A DNA stretch of 10,564 bases. Source: a virus. Within the stretch, counting starts at the first letter, position 1; the number at the start of each line of letters is the position of its first letter. Where the stretch lies: UHGV virus genome UHGV-1326494; one strand, written 5' to 3'. Positions 1,512 to 9,606 of this stretch are shown here, piece by piece. A program made the translations under genes and the position numbers. Under the pieces are notes generated by a model. The model worked only from the letters and a program-made list of their open reading frames with translations, had not been told where the DNA came from and ran no database searches.

Positions 1512-1872
1512 TATTGGCGTCCTGAATCATGAGAAAGACAATCATGGCGGCACGGAGTGGATTGTCATATGCGACACCAACATTCGGTCCGGCATCATCA
1601 AACAAGTCCCTTGCGTTGTCTGTAGCGCACGGCATTGAGGGATTGTCTAAAATTATGCTGATGTTGTTTTCAGTGATAATCGGCCATGCGTCTGATGGTC
1701 TTTTACAGTAATCAACCGTTTTTATTGCATAACCAGTTTCGTCATCCCACTCAACACCAACGATTGATGTTCCCAACTTTGCGATTTCGCAATCTTCGGG
1801 AGCAAATCCACAGCAAATTGCCACTCGCTTGTTAATTTCAAAATCACTTAACTGTGAATAATCCATTGTCAT
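1504..1872 (-). CDS. Hypothetical nin-region protein (122 aa, 5 Cys), function unknown; occupies the NinX-like position between ninE and ninF
   Basis: ORF track gives 134 aa from an upstream ATG at 1908, but that extension overlaps ninE. The ATG at 1870-1872 ([10 protein letters not shown]...) forms an ATGA overlap with the ninE stop and is the likelier start. The stop overlaps the ninF start. Confidence 0.65.
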
Positions 1873-2045
1873 TTCCTCGCACGAAGTCTTAGCCACCGGA
1901 TATCCCACAGGTGAGCCGTGTAGTTGAAGGTTTTTACATCAGATTCTTTTGGGATTGGCTTGCGTTTATTTCTGGAGCGTTTCGTTGGAAGGTATTTGCA
2001 GTTTTCGCAGATTATGTCGGTAATACTTCGTCGCTGTCGTCTCAT
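1869..2045 (-). CDS. ninE: NinE-like small basic protein (58 aa)
   Basis: Hand-translated: [61 protein letters not shown] at 2043-2045 overlaps the ninC stop (ATGA). Below ORF-track cutoff. Confidence 0.65.
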
Positions 2046-2887
2046 GCCGCATCATCAAAATTAAATCCAAGCTGACATGAAAATGCTTCACATGATTCAG
2101 AACACGAACCTGAATCATACTGTCGCATTGATGTCATTCTTGAGGCTAACTCATCTCTTGATATATCACTAAACAAGGCAATCAGTGATTTAAGTGTATT
2201 ATTCCCTCGATACATAACCGGTTCCTTTCCTGTTTTTATTTCTGTATCAAGGATGTTGATAAATGCATCTGCAAGTTCTGGCTCATCCATGGCTGCCAGC
2301 GCAACCTTTTGCATACTTTTTTTTATACAGAAAACACAATTACCAAGATGCTCCTGTATGCCAAGATCAAACTTCTGCCCACTCCACCAATCAAGCACAT
2401 CCTGTTTTTCAAAATCGCTTATATCAGCCAGGTACCGAAAACCATTAGCCCTTTTAAGCCTGTTTGGTTCATCTGTGCGAATGCCAAGCCATGTGATGTA
2501 ATTTCCTTTCCCAAACTTTTCCTGACAATATTTGGTGAATGGAACAGACTTCATTCTGTCGGTACAGAACGCACCGCCGATATATGGATGTCCGTATTTA
2601 TTTAACATCCTTTTCCACGGTATAAGATCTGGACCAATATCATTGACACCTATCTCTTCATAACTACTGGCCTTCCCCATTTCTGGATTAGGTATTACAC
2701 GAAGGCAATGTAAGTCTATTTTCCAGTTACTGACGATATTTCGGATGAACTCATATGTTTTAGGGTGCTCTGCCCCTGTATCCATGAAAACGTAATGCAC
2801 GTCTTCACCTGCCTGTCGCTTTTGCTCCATTAGCCAGAGCAAATATGCTGACGTCCTGCCACCTGAGAAACTAACGACATTTATCAT
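2042..2887 (-). CDS. ninC: NinC-like protein, PAPS-reductase / PP-loop ATP pyrophosphatase superfamily (281 aa from internal start)
   Basis: ORF track 311 aa; the first 30 codons overlap the upstream methyltransferase. The internal ATG at 2885-2887 ([17 protein letters not shown], SGGxxS PP-loop) forms an ATGA overlap with the methyltransferase stop. Confidence 0.8.
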
Positions 2888-3411
2888 GCAGCCCTCCTGA
2901 CACCCTGCCCGATCGCCATCAATGCCGCTTTGGATACGGTAGTAAACATCCGTCGAGGACTGATGAACGGTCGCCAAATCAGCAGCATGGAGCCTTTGCT
3001 GTTTCCCTTCTTCTCCAGCCCTGTCGATGGTTCGATAAAATTAATCCGTCCATCAGTGATAATGCGAACTTCGTCGACACTCTCCAGAGCCTTGCTGAAC
3101 CATCCGACTGACATATCCTCTGGCACAAGCATAACTACCGTCTGTCGCTGTTGTATGCACTGCTCAGCGGCTTTTTCCACCCACGGCCTGATATTGCTGT
3201 ACGGTGGGTTATTCCAGATTGCACCGTGGCTTACCCACTCAGAATTGAGCGCGTCGTCGGCCTCAGTTAGCCAGTGAGCACACAGAGCATTTTTGTCGCT
3301 CGCTGCCGAATCCAGCCAGAATCCAAACTCAATATCCAGTGCATCAAAAAGCCAGAGCGGCGTTTGCCAGCAGTCCTTGTCGTGTGCTGGCGTATTTGAT
3401 TTGATAGTCAT
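2884..3411 (-). CDS. Orphan DNA N6-adenine methyltransferase, phage Dam family (175 aa)
   Basis: Translation from ATG at 3409-3411: MTIKSNTPAHDKDCWQTPLWLFDAL...WLDSAASDKNA...WNNPPYS. The WQTP start, D-A-A motif and NPPY catalytic motif are characteristic of phage-type Dam methylases. ATGA overlap with the ninB stop. No restriction endonuclease partner is visible. Confidence 0.8.
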   Translation of the reverse strand: MTIKSNTPAHDKDCWQTPLWLFDALDIEFGFWLDSAASDKNALCAHWLTEADDALNSEWVSHGAIWNNPPYSNIRPWVEKAAEQCIQQRQTVVMLVPEDMSVGWFSKALESVDEVRIITDGRINFIEPSTGLEKKGNSKGSMLLIWRPFISPRRMFTTVSKAALMAIGQGVRRAA

Positions 3412-3848
3412 GCAGCCCGATCTCCCCATCGCGCTTTCCATTCGAGAGCCAGTCGCGCTTCGTCTGACCACTTAACGCCACGCTCTGTACCGAATGCCTG
3501 TATAAGCTCTAATAGCTCCGCAAATTCGCTTACACGCATCCTGCTGGTTGACTGGCCTATTACCACAAAGCCATTCCCGGCAAGGTTAGGAACAACATCC
3601 TGCTGCTTTAATGCTGCGGTAAACACACACTTCCAGCTTTCTGCATCCAGCCAGCGACCATGCCATTCAACCTGACGAGAGACGTCACCAAGGCAAGCCC
3701 AAAGCTTTCGATTCTGGTCTAAGCTGCGGTTGCGTTCCTGAATGGTTACTACGATTGGTTTGGTTGGGTCTGGAAGAATTTGCTGTACTGCGTGAATAGC
3801 GTTTTGCTGATGTGCTGGAGATCGAATTTCAAAGGTTAGTTTTTTCAT
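3408..3848 (-). CDS. ninB: NinB/Orf recombination mediator (146 aa)
   Basis: ORF track 152 aa; start chosen at ATG 3846-3848 (MKKLTFEIRSPAHQQNAIHAVQQILPDP...), which has a purine-rich RBS (GGGAGAGAGGGAAG) upstream. Length and sequence match my memory of lambda NinB. Confidence 0.85.
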   Translation of the reverse strand: MKKLTFEIRSPAHQQNAIHAVQQILPDPTKPIVVTIQERNRSLDQNRKLWACLGDVSRQVEWHGRWLDAESWKCVFTAALKQQDVVPNLAGNGFVVIGQSTSRMRVSEFAELLELIQAFGTERGVKWSDEARLALEWKARWGDRAA

Positions 3849-3862
3849 GACTTCCCTCTCTC

Positions 3863-3896
3863 CCAAATAAAAAGGCCTGCGATTATCAGCAGGCCT
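3863..3896 (-). terminator. Intrinsic terminator between helicase and ninB (tR2-analog position)
   Basis: Perfect 8-bp inverted repeat aggcctgc (3873-3880) / gcaggcct (3889-3896) with an 8-nt loop. On the minus-strand transcript the hairpin is followed by UUUUAUUU (complement of 3865-3872). Confidence 0.6.
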
Positions 3897-3921: not shown

Positions 3922-5298
3922 TCATACGTCAGCCCCTTGTGCATATCGTCTGCCACGCGCAGCAGGTGCATTTGATGCTGTGCAAATCTGTCTGGCTTCA
4001 TCCTGGTCACATGCAACAAAGTGTCCGTTGCAGAACCGCTGGTAAACCGTACCAAGTGAGCCAAAACGGTTTTTCGTCACGATGATTTCAGCAAATGGCG
4101 CGGCGCTACTGTTCTCGTCATATACCGCTTCCCGATAGAGCATGATGATTGAGTCTGCGTCCTGCTCAATGCTTCCTGAATCACGCAAATCTGCGTTTGT
4201 CGGGCGTTTGTTTGGTCGCTTCTCAACATCGCGCGAAAGCTGACTCAGGGAGATAACCGGTGTTTTCAGGTCTTTCGCCATCGCCTTCAGGCTTCCGGAG
4301 ATGTGAGCAATTGCGAGGTCGTTGCGGTCTGCTTTCGGCTTCTCAATCAGGCCAAGATAATCCGCCATGATGAGTGACAGGTTTGGATTTTCCTGTTTGT
4401 GCCGTTCTGCGATTGAGCGTATTTCTTCGACCGATAACCGCGAGGCATCGACTACCCATACATCCAAATCTGCAAGCTGACTCATGCCGTTAGCAACACG
4501 CGCCCAGCCTTCGTCATCCATCGATGCAGGATTTCGCAGCACGCTAACAGACATCCTCCCGGCGTTGGCAATGCTTCGCTCTGCAATCTGCAATGCGCTC
4601 ATTTCCATCGAGAAAATCAACACTCCGCGCCGGATGTCAGAACCAGGAATAACGCGGCTTGCAACGCCTTCGGCAATCTTCAGCGCCAGTTCGGTTTTCC
4701 CCATACCCGGACGAGCAGCGATAATCACCAGGTCTTCCGCGTTCATCCCTCCGGTGATGGCGTCAAGTTCTTCGATTCCGGTCTTCAGGGTATCTGATTC
4801 CTCTCCGTTCCTCAGACGCCTGTCAAGCGTGTCAGTGTAGTCAGTGATGATTTCCCCTAACCGTACAGGTTTAACCTCGTCACGGGGCTTTCTGATGACT
4901 GAAAGACGCTTTACAAGCTCGTCCATCGCCTGACTCGATGTATCGATGGTTCCGCTCTGAATTGGTTCACGCATTTCATCCATGATTTCCAGCACCAGAC
5001 GGCGGTGATAGTTATCCGCGACCATTCCGGCATATCCCTTCAGGTTTGCGGCACTCGGGCAGTTCTTACTGGTCATCAGGATTGACGTGAAATGCTCCTC
5101 TCCGCACGCCTCGGCAACCATCAGCGCGTCGATTAGGTTTCTGTTTCTCGCCTGCTTACGGATAACTTCGAAGGCTTTCCTGTAGAGCGGAATTGAAAAC
5201 GCTTCCGGCTCAAGCGTTGCCAGAACGTCACTGGCGGTTGGAGTTAATCCACCAATCAGCAGGCCACCGATAACGCTCGCTTCGATATCCTGTCTCAT
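3922..5298 (-). CDS. Replicative DNA helicase, DnaB family (458 aa; P22 gene 12-like)
   Basis: 458-aa ORF with a DnaB-like N-terminus ([12 protein letters not shown]), Walker [10 protein letters not shown] and a RecA-like C-terminal fold. ATGA overlap with the upstream O-like gene stop. Confidence 0.9.
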
Positions 5299-6116
5299 GC
5301 AATCCCCCTGTCTGCAAACTTCCCTTCCCGAACTCCCGTTAACGAATCTTCCCTCAGCAGGTAATCAAAATCGGCCGTCCAGCCAGTGTCGTTGTCTCCG
5401 AAGTAAAACGGCTTGGCCTGATGTACAAACGCCCTGACATACGCTCTGAAACCGTCCACGTTTGGCGTTTTCAGTTGCGGGATGATTTTCTTCAGGCGGC
5501 GTTTGCGTTTCTCGTTGACCGCAACAGCGTGTGGCAGTCTGTCACCGACTTCGGTGTTGTAGGCGTTCAGGAAGGATTCGTAGTCGATTCGTTCTGCCTT
5601 GCGACGTTCAGGTTTAACCTGCCCATCGCCGCCCCCGTTAGGGGGTAAGGGGGTATTTGTATTTATTGTCTTTTGTATATTGTCTTTTGTGTTTAGCTGA
5701 CTTGGCTTATACCCATTAGCCGACTCGGCTAATGTTTTATTAGCTGTTTTAGCTAATGTTAAGCTGTCCTGGCTAATCCACTGAGAAACCACCTTGTTCA
5801 CTCCGATTTTCACGCCATCAGCAATGAGGAATTTACGCTCGATAAGCTGGCGCTTGGCAGCGCAAACATGAGTGTGATGAATACCTGTCATGGCTGCTAT
5901 CTGCGTGTTTGTGAGTCGATCCATCGGCTTATTGAATCCGTATGTCTTGCGCATGATAGCGAGCATCACCTTCAACTGCCGGACGGTTAAATCAGCCATC
6001 AGCAGACTGTCGGTAATCTCGTTAGCAACGCGCATGAAACCATCTTCGGTATCTGCCACGCGATGCTCCACGACCTCCAGTTGAGGCCTGTAATCAGCTA
6101 ACTTAACGACGCCCAT
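5295..6116 (-). CDS. Replication initiator / replisome organizer, lambda O-like N-terminal domain (273 aa; P22 gene 18-like)
   Basis: N-terminus ([22 protein letters not shown]...) resembles the phage O-protein DNA-binding domain. The gene contains the iteron array and AT-rich tract expected of an embedded origin, plus a Gly/Pro linker encoded by a G-rich palindrome. Confidence 0.85.
5632..5776. repeat. Candidate origin of replication inside the O-like gene: four dyad-symmetric ~17-bp iterons plus an AT-rich tract and a G/C palindrome
   Basis: Iterons TTAGC-N7-GCTAA at 5693-5709 (TTAGCtgacttgGCTTA), 5716-5732 (TTAGCcgactcgGCTAA), 5740-5756 (TTAGCtgttttaGCTAA) and about 5760-5776 (tAAGCtgtcctgGCTAA), spaced 20-24 bp. 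Adjacent AT-rich tract 5651-5692 contains ttgtcttttgt twice. Palindrome ccccc-gtta-ggggg at 5632-5645. Confidence 0.6.
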
Positions 6117-6264
6117 GTTTCACTCCTGCTTTGGCTAGTCTGTAAACACCAACAAGGCGCTCTGCGAACGCCCTGTTATTTGCTGCGGCTACCACTAATC
6201 CCTCAGGTGAATCAGGGTGTCGAATCTCTTCTTTTTCCTGGTATTTCTTACGACGTTTTGTCAT
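6103..6264 (-). CDS. Hypothetical small basic protein (53 aa) between c1 and the O-like gene
   Basis: ATG at 6262-6264 preceded by AGGAG at about 7 nt. [53 protein letters not shown]. The 3' end overlaps the O-like start by 14 nt. ORF track shows a longer 68-aa version that overlaps c1. Confidence 0.4.
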   Translation of the reverse strand: MTKRRKKYQEKEEIRHPDSPEGLVVAAANNRAFAERLVGVYRLAKAGVKHGRR

Positions 6265-8435: not shown

Positions 8436-8975
8436 CTAAATTAGCTCATCAGCTTTACCAGCAAAGCGCATATAACACTCATGGAACCAGACGTCAGGTA
8501 TAACAAATTTCTCTTTACCTGACGCGCTGTAAGTCACACCTGAGCGATGGAGAAGGCCTTTTCTCATAAGAGATAAAGCGACCGGATCGCCGTGCTTAAG
8601 TACGATTTTGTTATTTGCCATAACAGCAAATGCTAAAACCTCTTTTTCCTGAATACTCAGAGAATTGAATAGGCGCTCAGTCTCCACAATTACTTTAGCC
8701 TCATCTATCTTACTGAGATATTTTTTATATCTGTCTGAAGATGCCAGAAATATAAACTCCACCCCCCTGTTCAGAACATAACTGATACACAAAAGCATTG
8801 CGTAATACATCCAGTGATCTGGAAGTATTTCGGGGTTCCTTATATCTACCCACTCTTTAATTGATGCTGGGGTGATTATTATCAAGGTAATTAAAATAAT
8901 AAGCATATGAATTAACTGTTGTAGCGTAAGACCACGCAGGAAGAAACGTAATAGTTCCTGCCACCAGTTACTCAT
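8436..8975 (-). CDS. Membrane protein antisense to the PL operon (179 aa); superinfection-exclusion SieB-like by position and architecture, family not confirmed
   Basis: ORF track 179 aa. GGAG about 8 nt upstream of the ATG at 8973-8975. Two predicted TM segments (LIHMLIILITLIIIT and WMYYAMLLCISYVL) followed by a soluble domain. The gene is visibly AT-rich compared with its neighbours and is convergent with the N-like gene. Confidence 0.65.
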   Translation of the reverse strand: MSNWWQELLRFFLRGLTLQQLIHMLIILITLIIITPASIKEWVDIRNPEILPDHWMYYAMLLCISYVLNRGVEFIFLASSDRYKKYLSKIDEAKVIVETERLFNSLSIQEKEVLAFAVMANNKIVLKHGDPVALSLMRKGLLHRSGVTYSASGKEKFVIPDVWFHECYMRFAGKADELI

Positions 8976-9237: not shown

Positions 9238-9606
9238 ATGTCAAACATCAAAAAATACATCATTGATTACGACTGGAAAGCATCAATAGAAATTGAAATC
9301 GACCATGACGTAATGACAGAGGAAAAACTTCACCAGATTAATAATTTCTGGTCAGACTCTGAATACCGACTCAATAAACACGGCTCTGTATTAAATGCTG
9401 TATTAATCATGCTGGCGCAACATGCTCTGCTTATAGCAATTTCAAGCGACTTAAATGCATATGGTGTTGTGTGTGAGTTCGACTGGAATGATGGAAATGG
9501 TCAGGAAGGATGGCCTCCAATGAATGGTAGCGAAGGAATAAGAATTACCGATATCGACACATCTGGAATATTTGATTCAGATGATATGACTATCAAAGCC
9601 GCCTGA
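9238..9606 (+). CDS. ea10: Ea10-like protein (122 aa)
   Basis: ORF track 122 aa with GAGGA upstream. AT-rich. Position between the N region and cIII, and the length, match lambda ea10. The identity is from memory and position, not a search. Confidence 0.6.
   Translation: MSNIKKYIIDYDWKASIEIEIDHDVMTEEKLHQINNFWSDSEYRLNKHGSVLNAVLIMLAQHALLIAISSDLNAYGVVCEFDWNDGNGQEGWPPMNGSEGIRITDIDTSGIFDSDDMTIKAA

Follow-up and report, generated by a model that had tools for sequence, protein, structure and literature searches.

The 10,564-base stretch of the virus genome UHGV-1326494 analysed here (hereafter the window) belongs, according to its open reading frames (ORFs) and Pfam annotation, to a lambdoid prophage whose immunity region is P22-like, and covers the early region of that prophage. 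Its nin operon encodes an N6-adenine methylase of 175 amino acids (aa), referred to below as Dam, followed by a 281-aa orthologue of lambda NinC. We favour, with moderate confidence, the view that Dam and NinC are two parallel and separable counter-defence modules on phage DNA rather than an obligate pair. This view builds on the independent assortment of the two genes in related phages, on gene joints that recur throughout the nin operon, and on the repeated fusion of NinC-family proteins to DNA methylases, including one fusion implicated in escape from Dnd restriction. The methylase, the NinC gene and their order (in phage Oslo) were known beforehand, as was, in part, the character of the fused form, and the window locus is the split-gene form of a known fusion type. 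The genes concerned are:

3408–3848, minus strand: ninB (Orf-family recombination mediator), PF05772 at 1.1e-54; upstream of the methylase cassette, its stop overlapping the methylase ATG
2884–3411, minus strand: methylase, 175 aa, PF05869 'Dam' at 6.4e-65, TIGR01712 at 265.9 bits
2042–2887, minus strand: ninC orthologue, 281 aa, PF01507 PAPS_reduct at 1.8e-8
1869–2045, minus strand: ninE, PF05322 at 6.6e-43; downstream of ninC, and in most relatives directly after Dam or NinB

A first-pass annotation of the window had described a 175-aa methyltransferase with WQTP and NPPY motifs, located between ninB and ninC with ATGA overlaps on both sides and having no counterpart at this position in lambda. 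Its coordinates, motifs and overlaps were confirmed, and the lambda nin order is NinB>NinC with no methylase between the two. Lambda NinC occupies the same slot before ninD/ninE and differs in allele (290 aa, against 281 aa in the window) as well as in having no methylase upstream. The further claim that a cognate endonuclease is missing agrees with the absence of any unassigned ORF of restriction-endonuclease size from the 10.5-kb window, the remaining prophage being outside view.

Independent assortment of Dam and ninC

A query spanning both genes retrieved no record from the phage collection at a coverage of at least 80%. The component genes were found apart from each other at high DNA identity, as evidenced by Salmonella phage SE16 (NinB>NinC>NinE, ninC 98.4% identical, without Dam) and phage 1H12 (NinB>Dam>NinE, Dam 99.4% identical, without NinC). 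Salmonella phage vB_SosS_Oslo (NinB>Dam>NinC>NinD>NinE) has the same order as the window, the same ATGA joints and a 99% identical Dam, but this Dam is followed by a lambda-type NinC allele only 57% identical to that of the window. In phage VT2-Sakai, orf32, which belongs to the family of the T1 and HP1 Dam proteins, likewise follows ninB immediately and is joined to it through the same ATGA, but the next gene is ninE and not ninC (NinB>Dam>NinE).

Larger samples gave a similar picture; these consist of the best-scoring loci with clonal relatives included, and their numbers are indicative, not exact. Among 5426 complete E. coli genomes, the Dam allele was present in 1540, the window ninC allele in 28 and both, contiguously, in 18. 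NinC was absent from 79 of the 80 IMG/VR loci encoding the identical Dam, and loci retrieved with NinC as the seed (n = 80) had an adjacent Dam in 14 cases, 12 upstream and 2 downstream. When loci were instead seeded with NinB (73 usable), Dam was present in 40, NinC in 6 and both in a single locus, where 3.3 would be expected (odds ratio 0.14; one-sided p for enrichment 0.99). All four combinations (neither gene, Dam only, NinC only, both) were recovered. Dam and ninC assort independently in E. coli-type lambdoid phages; combined with the presence of the VT2-Sakai Dam without NinC and of lambda NinC without a methylase, this indicates that the two are not obligate partners.

Outside this group, the chromosome of Xenorhabdus sp. 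TCT-1 contains three prophage copies (L270–L272) in which NinC is accompanied by a PF05869 Dam about 1.7 kb downstream, the Dam gene being split by an in-frame stop in two of the three copies (5508–5852 and 5856–6125).

Joints and repeats bounding the nin cassettes

The joints around the two genes, and a direct repeat associated with them, are:

3408–3411, minus strand: ATGA joint of NinB and methylase, stop/start overlap
2884–2887, minus strand: ATGA joint of methylase and NinC, stop/start overlap of two ORFs in different frames
2042–2045, minus strand: ATGA joint of NinC and NinE, stop/start overlap
3408–3418, unstranded: 11-bp direct repeat TCATGCAGCCC, left copy, including the ATGA joint; one boundary of the methylase cassette
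2884–2894, unstranded: 11-bp direct repeat TCATGCAGCCC, right copy, at the Dam>NinC joint

ATGA overlaps are found at six of the nine window junctions from O to NinH and likewise at most lambda nin junctions, the lambda nin genes having been termed 'a chain of interlinked genes' (Kroger & Hobom 1982, as cited in PMC10695390). More specifically, an extended joint that reads GCnGCATGA on the coding strand is common to NinB>Dam, NinB>NinC, Dam>NinC, Dam>NinE, NinC>NinE and NinC>NinD across the window and its relatives. Exact copies of TCATGCAGCCC occur in the window only twice, at 2884 and 3408, where they bracket the methylase, and the homology of SE16, in which NinB is joined to NinC without Dam, extends to window position 2897, just beyond the right repeat. 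TCATGCAGCCC and GCnGCATGA look like stretches of short homology that allow nin cassettes to enter and leave the operon by exchange. The ATGA overlaps are a grammar of cassette exchange and no mark of a specific partnership, and because the same joint recurs at every cassette junction whatever genes meet there, translational coupling is uninformative as to a relationship between Dam and NinC. The earlier suggestion, offered as an inference only, that tight coupling might point to joint action is not supported by these joints. As a side observation, NinB, Dam, NinC and NinG all terminate in '...AA*'.

An orphan methylase of the PF05869 family

The methylase matches PF05869 with 218 bits (cutoff 28) over profile positions 1–167 of 169, and the TIGR01712 equivalog for phage N-6-adenine-methyltransferases with 266 bits (cutoff 97). 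Its characteristic motifs are:

3358–3369, minus strand: WQTP motif, methylase residues 15–18, N-terminal, read from the sequence
3199–3210, minus strand: catalytic NPPY motif, methylase residues 68–71; N68, P69, P70 and Y71 invariant in 32 homologues

In the same 32 homologues T17 and P18 of the WQTP motif are invariant, and W15 and Q16 nearly so. The combination of (D/N)PPY with WxTP in a 175-aa protein that has no separate target-recognition domain is that of the PF05869 family. The classical Dam family PF02086 (EcoDam/T4Dam, D12 class) gave no match to the methylase at E ≤ 0.01, and EcoDam structures match its structural model at E > 0.1 only. The name 'Dam' for the window methylase is a matter of specificity, not family, and the initial label of a Dam-family enzyme is correct in the PF05869/GATC sense but not for classical PF02086.

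All 175 residues are identical to those of VT2-Sakai orf32, which is probably M.EcoVT2Dam as judged from annotation and family. M.EcoVT2Dam of phage VT2-Sa is described as an orphan methylase targeting GATC (PMC6602927), and both PMC6602927 and PMC7556043 cite Radlinska & Bujnicki 2001 for its original cloning. This supports the initial description of the window gene as an orphan N6-adenine methylase. We consider it very probable from this sequence identity that the methylase would make N6-methyladenine (m6A) at GATC on replicating phage DNA, no partner being needed. GATC itself is roughly two-fold under-represented in this phage with its own GATC methylase, as the window contains 22 sites where about 41 are expected from base composition and about 57 from trinucleotide frequencies.

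The AlphaFold model of the methylase has a mean predicted local distance difference test score (pLDDT) of 72.6, with residues 32–55 below 50, and fold searches returned weak matches to m6A methylases only, restricted to their cores, which is due in part to the mediocre model. A sequence search of the PDB gave nothing significant for either the methylase or NinC. Two published enzymes were considered as precedents and set aside. A two-subunit prophage 'DNA adenine methylase' that acts on 16S rRNA, published in 2023 (PMC10810198), is an analogy only, since it belongs to the MT-A70 family (DPPW) and resides at a different locus, and the non-specific adenine methylases Hia5 and Hin1523 (PMC3299994) have DPPY and FxGxG motifs plus a target-recognition region, membership of the same family not being shown.

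NinC, a PP-loop protein partly resembling SspD and DndC

Window NinC is 56% identical to lambda NinC over its full length (281 and 290 aa; E 4e-118); the first ~40 residues including the PP-loop are nearly identical, and all conserved cysteines are in common. By this full-length similarity and by its nin position between ninB and ninD/ninE, the 281-aa protein qualifies as a genuine orthologue of NinC. In lambda, NinC is non-essential (PMC10695390), and our search of the NinC literature turned up essentiality and interaction-map papers, none of which assigns a function. The principal motifs of the window protein are:

2849–2872, minus strand: PP-loop nucleotide-binding motif SFSGGRTS, NinC residues 6–13; S6 and S8–S13 invariant in 33 homologues
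2327–2338, minus strand: CxxC, NinC C184 and C187; invariant in 33 homologues, also in fusions
2090–2104, minus strand: C-terminal CSESC motif, C262–C266; C266 invariant, G260–S265 nearly so

NinC scores above the gathering cutoff of PF01507 (PAPS_reduct), and its best matches among the PADLOC defence profiles are SspD (2.6e-14, 51.6 bits), BrxP (6.6e-8, 29 bits) and DndC (5e-4, 17 bits), in agreement with its earlier assignment to the PAPS-reductase/PP-loop superfamily that includes DndC. DndC, SspD and BrxP, which contribute the PAPS domain to phosphorothioate DNA-modification systems, share with NinC a PP-loop PAPS_reduct domain and a wealth of cysteines; they differ in that only the N-terminal ~140 residues of NinC align (residues 4–144 in the profile matches) and in that NinC is phage-borne and lies outside a host defence island. 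Neither an adjacent nucleoside triphosphatase (NTPase) of the DndD/SspC/BrxC type nor a DndE/SspB DNA-recognition partner, on both of which phosphorothioate synthesis depends (PMC12914056), was found beside window NinC, the neighbours being NinB, Dam, NinE and NinX.

The nearest solved fold is that of CysH, which matches weakly (E 3e-4, template modelling score 0.4–0.5, about 20% identity; structures 6vpu and 1sur) and has a DTG motif in common with NinC. Still weaker matches were to other PP-loop enzymes, among them LarE and TtuA, which are sulfur transferases with a [4Fe-4S] cluster, and the tRNA enzyme TilS. NinC differs from CysH in failing the CysH equivalog models (NF002537, 18.7 bits against a cutoff of 154; TIGR02055, 16.6 against 235) and in its canonical PP-loop, as opposed to the degenerate SSSFGIQA of the aligned CysH (6vpu). 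The catalytic C-terminal motif of CysH is ECGLH, which is absent from NinC, whose C-terminus reads GSCSESCE.

Five cysteines are invariant in the 33 NinC homologues (C108, C121, C184, C187 and C266) and two further ones nearly so; C184 and C187 may form a metal or iron–sulfur site together with C108. The AlphaFold model of NinC has a pLDDT of 87, with confidence falling after about residue 260, and the CSESC tail is probably flexible. From the fold matches, the canonical PP-loop and the invariant cysteines we infer that NinC could be an ATP-using adenylating enzyme, possibly one with a metal or iron–sulfur site.

Many NinC-family representatives of 330–380 aa (for example P0360, P0362, P0368 and P0373) match in two pieces with a break near residue 145–150, which suggests a common insertion of about 60–100 residues at that point, and no extra Pfam domains were found in the longer close homologues (332–423 aa). 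One viral contig (L161) carries PAPS-reductase-domain genes in tandem, namely a NinC homologue at 4001–4825 (53% identical) and a divergent 284-aa PF01507 protein at 4909–5763.

Recurrent fusion of NinC to DNA methylases

Both domains do not occur in one polypeptide in the window, but they do so in a range of relatives. An alignment of NinC searched against one genome per species (GTDB) returned 80 NinC hits, of which 16 with lambda-identical sequence were excluded. These 16 (L255, L257–L263, L265–L267, L285, L297, L310, L315 and L316) are at least 99% identical to lambda, sit in assemblies of unrelated organisms (Kitasatospora, Bradyrhizobium, Oceanobacillus, Shewanella and others), are often on contigs of ~48.5 kb at ~1x coverage, and are almost certainly lambda DNA contamination of public assemblies. 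The scan revealed single ORFs with an N-terminal NinC and a C-terminal PF05869 domain (134–148 bits) in Sodalis, Providencia (two loci) and an Erwiniaceae genome. The 495-aa Providencia fusion was then used to query a protein collection, and among its best 120 clusters PF01507 was combined with PF05869 in 41, from Providencia, Morganella, Serratia, Yersinia, Salmonella, Pectobacterium, Klebsiella, Pantoea, Erwinia, Shewanella and Vibrio phages. Twelve others of the 120 combined PF01507 with PF02086 (D12 Dam family), and one each with PF00145 (C5-cytosine), PF01555 (N4/N6) and PF05063 (MT-A70).

An alignment of 20 NinC-Dam fusions showed the PP-loop (FSGGRTS), seven cysteines and the methylase NPPY/TP residues to be invariant throughout, and the D..W..TP positions to be conserved. 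Most fusions have a linker of about 30–90 residues and are spread over many genera. In a distance tree of the NinC domain, solo and fused forms are interleaved and partners are swapped, which indicates that fusion arose repeatedly. The involvement of five methylase families points to repeated selection rather than accident; since both C5-cytosine and N6-adenine methylases occur, the partners have no base chemistry in common. The best PHROG match of window NinC (phrog_33262, 4e-112) covers positions 1–278 of 495, the full length being that of a fusion. Fusions are a minority of the NinC family and methylases its only recurrent fusion partner: among the best 150 representatives clustered at 50% identity, seven are at least 450 aa long and six of these are methylase fusions, of which P0363 is ordered Dam>NinC like the window genes.

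The same theme exists in unfused form. Some NinC alleles 84–86% identical to the window's have a methylase of another family directly downstream (L112:4840–5433, L114:4727–5209), the genes in this position encoding an MT-A70 protein at two loci, or else a small protein that matches Methyltransf_11 weakly.

Fusions involving Dam are not confined to NinC. Various E. coli records contain the identical Dam fused to NinE, NinB, RusA, CII or a Q-type antiterminator domain (P0122, P0125, P0131, P0133, P0142 and P0207); all of these are probably read-through or deletion fusions at ATGA joints, or pseudogenes. Providencia proteins of 631–674 aa (P0287, P0346, P0348 and P0356) combine a C5-cytosine methylase with a PF05869 Dam, and phages therefore also fuse modification enzymes that are independent of each other.

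A possible link to escape from Dnd restriction

A NinC-type fusion has been partly characterised in Vibrio phage 44E38.1, a podovirus, whose 479-aa protein p0018 consists of a PAPS domain and a Dam domain (Piel et al., bioRxiv 10.1101/2021.05.05.442762). When p0018 was transferred to a sister phage together with the adjacent p0019, the recipient phage became able to infect a Dnd-carrying host, and the Dam domain of p0018 is 96% identical to the stand-alone Dam of the sister phage (bioRxiv 10.1101/2021.05.05.442762). The PAPS-Dam fusion is thereby implicated in escape from Dnd restriction. Over 278 residues, window NinC shares 62% identity with the PAPS domain of p0018, more than with lambda NinC, and window Dam is 38% identical to the Dam domain of p0018. 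All motifs are in common between p0018 and the window proteins; the two differ in that p0018 joins the domains in one polypeptide as NinC>Dam and the window encodes them separately as Dam>NinC. The first-pass suggestion of a link between NinC and DNA methylases is thus upheld as regards fusion with five Pfam families, one member being implicated in Dnd escape, but not as regards obligate pairing, given the independent assortment described above.

Proposed roles and alternative explanations

From the observed gene identities, motifs, mosaic distribution and fusions we infer a possible activity, target and anti-Dnd role for NinC, as follows. The lambda nin genes are transcribed as delayed-early genes from pR, and the two window genes, as separate and individually mobile accessory cassettes of a lambdoid nin operon, would presumably be expressed likewise. 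Both would probably act as counter-defence on replicating phage DNA. The methylase would be a minimal PF05869 enzyme that places N6-methyladenine at GATC without a partner, and NinC a PP-loop enzyme (ATP-pyrophosphatase type) of the PAPS-reductase/DndC/SspD clade with invariant cysteines. Based on the 62% identity to the PAPS domain of the Vibrio fusion, we tentatively propose, at somewhat less than even confidence, that NinC may help phage DNA to evade phosphorothioate-dependent or similar (Dnd-like) restriction. The ATGA overlap would be a generic exchange joint of nin cassettes, and the fusions found elsewhere would reflect a shared job and a shared substrate, which fits better than a shared reaction because many methylase families are involved and the same phages also contain C5-methylase+Dam fusions.

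Several points weigh against this account. In the Vibrio experiment p0018 and p0019 were transferred together and the PAPS and Dam domains were not separated (bioRxiv 10.1101/2021.05.05.442762); no homologue of p0019 was found in the window. All four established phosphorothioate systems require, besides a PAPS-domain protein, a P-loop NTPase dedicated to the system (PMC12914056), and no such NTPase adjoins NinC in the window. The existence of fusions, including P0363 in the window order, makes physical cooperation of Dam and NinC possible. NinC is present when lambda DNA is made, yet this DNA commonly serves as an unmodified control and is not known to carry any unusual modification. The counter-defence activity of NinC is a prediction from sequence, and orf32 is equated with the cloned M.EcoVT2Dam on the grounds of annotation and family.

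The fusions could alternatively be taken to mean that Dam and NinC form one two-enzyme pathway or complex for a joint, possibly new, DNA modification in which Dam provides DNA or base recognition and NinC ATP-dependent chemistry. NinC-Dam fusions, which exist in either domain order and retain the two active sites, would fit such a pathway, as would divergent alleles that adjoin in either order (L111, L113 and L133) and the coincidence, in Vibrio, of the gain of anti-Dnd activity with the addition of a PAPS domain to an existing Dam (bioRxiv 10.1101/2021.05.05.442762). We nonetheless consider it improbable: each gene is common without the other at an identity of at least 98%, lambda has NinC without any methylase, VT2-Sakai has the identical Dam without NinC, and M.EcoVT2Dam, once cloned, was described as GATC-specific. 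Moreover, the fusion partners span unrelated families of C5-cytosine and N6-adenine methylases, and C5-methylase+Dam proteins show that independent enzymes get fused. In an equally improbable variant, NinC itself would write a sulfur-based (phosphorothioate-like) or other ATP-activated mark on DNA without DndD/DndE machinery, a neighbouring or fused methylase serving as its DNA-engaging partner and Dam-NinC being a split 'self-mimicry' enzyme; if this were true, a role in modifying phage DNA would fall to lambda NinC, a gene that has lacked a function ever since the nin region was sequenced in 1982. The opposite possibility is that the adjacency is functionally meaningless, that NinC has a target other than phage DNA, for example in thiolation of host tRNA/RNA or in another PP-loop reaction, and that the fusions are by-products of read-through at ATGA joints. 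The Dam fusions with NinE, NinB, RusA and CII demonstrate that nin joints do fuse by accident, NinC has fold matches to the tRNA enzymes TilS and TtuA, and there is no positive co-occurrence of Dam and NinC in lambdoid phages; yet linkers of ~30–90 residues with both active sites invariant in many genera, partners from five methylase families and the experimental anti-Dnd evidence for one fusion (bioRxiv 10.1101/2021.05.05.442762) make this explanation rather unlikely. Least probable, in our view, is that NinC is a PAPS/APS reductase-type auxiliary metabolic gene for host sulfate assimilation, unrelated to DNA and next to a methylase by an accident of mosaicism. It would be in line with the PF01507 match above the gathering cutoff, with CysH (6vpu, 1sur) as the nearest solved fold, with a conserved cysteine on a flexible C-terminal tail reminiscent of the catalytic tail of CysH, and with virome literature in which the PAPS reductases of phages count as auxiliary metabolic genes (PMC13369170). 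The score far below the CysH cutoff (18.7 against 154 bits), the weakness of the fold match, the canonical SGGxTS PP-loop, the C-terminus GSCSESCE in place of ECGLH and the fact that methylases are the sole recurrent fusion partner of the NinC family argue against it. We therefore retain, at the strength given above, the view of two separable counter-defence modules.

Other features of the window

The genes on the minus strand are, in order, cro, cII, O, a DnaB-type helicase, a tR2-like terminator, NinB, the methylase, NinC, NinE, NinX, NinF, NinG and NinH, and the other side of the window carries an S24 repressor, N, SieB, cIII and Kil. The terminator lies as follows:

3873–3896, minus strand: tR2-like intrinsic terminator, stem of eight pairs (6 GC), then TTTTATTT

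This hairpin occupies the 73-nt gap from the helicase gene to ninB, at the head of the nin block, and matches in position lambda tR2, which sits between ren and ninB. The NinX start in the ORF list is a GTG at 1908 that gives a 40-nt overlap with NinE; an alternative ATG at 1872, preceded by GAGGA, gives the protein start seen in relatives and an ATGA overlap with the NinE stop (1869–1872). The pL operon contains, beside N, cIII and Kil, the superinfection-exclusion gene SieB (8436–8975, minus strand, PF14163) and a DUF2528 gene (9238–9606, plus strand), both of which are ordinary lambdoid accessory genes.

Implications for NinC

The locus itself is ordinary, consisting of a known methylase of Shiga toxin (Stx) phages and a NinC orthologue joined by the standard nin overlap. 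What is useful here is the lead that it offers on NinC: its methylase fusions across five families, its 62% identity to a domain implicated in Dnd escape and its likeness to SspD and DndC provide comparative evidence tying lambda-type NinC to DNA-modification counter-defence. NinC mostly carries the label 'PAPS reductase', and virome studies often class it as an auxiliary gene of sulfur metabolism. That lambda-type NinC groups with an anti-Dnd PAPS domain is perhaps little appreciated, and the recurrent fusion to methylases argues against routine annotation of NinC as a sulfur-metabolism gene (e.g. PMC13369170). If this is confirmed, lambda and E. coli Dnd/Ssp strains that already exist would allow the function of NinC to be tested, and caution would be advisable in reading phage 'cysH' genes as metabolic.

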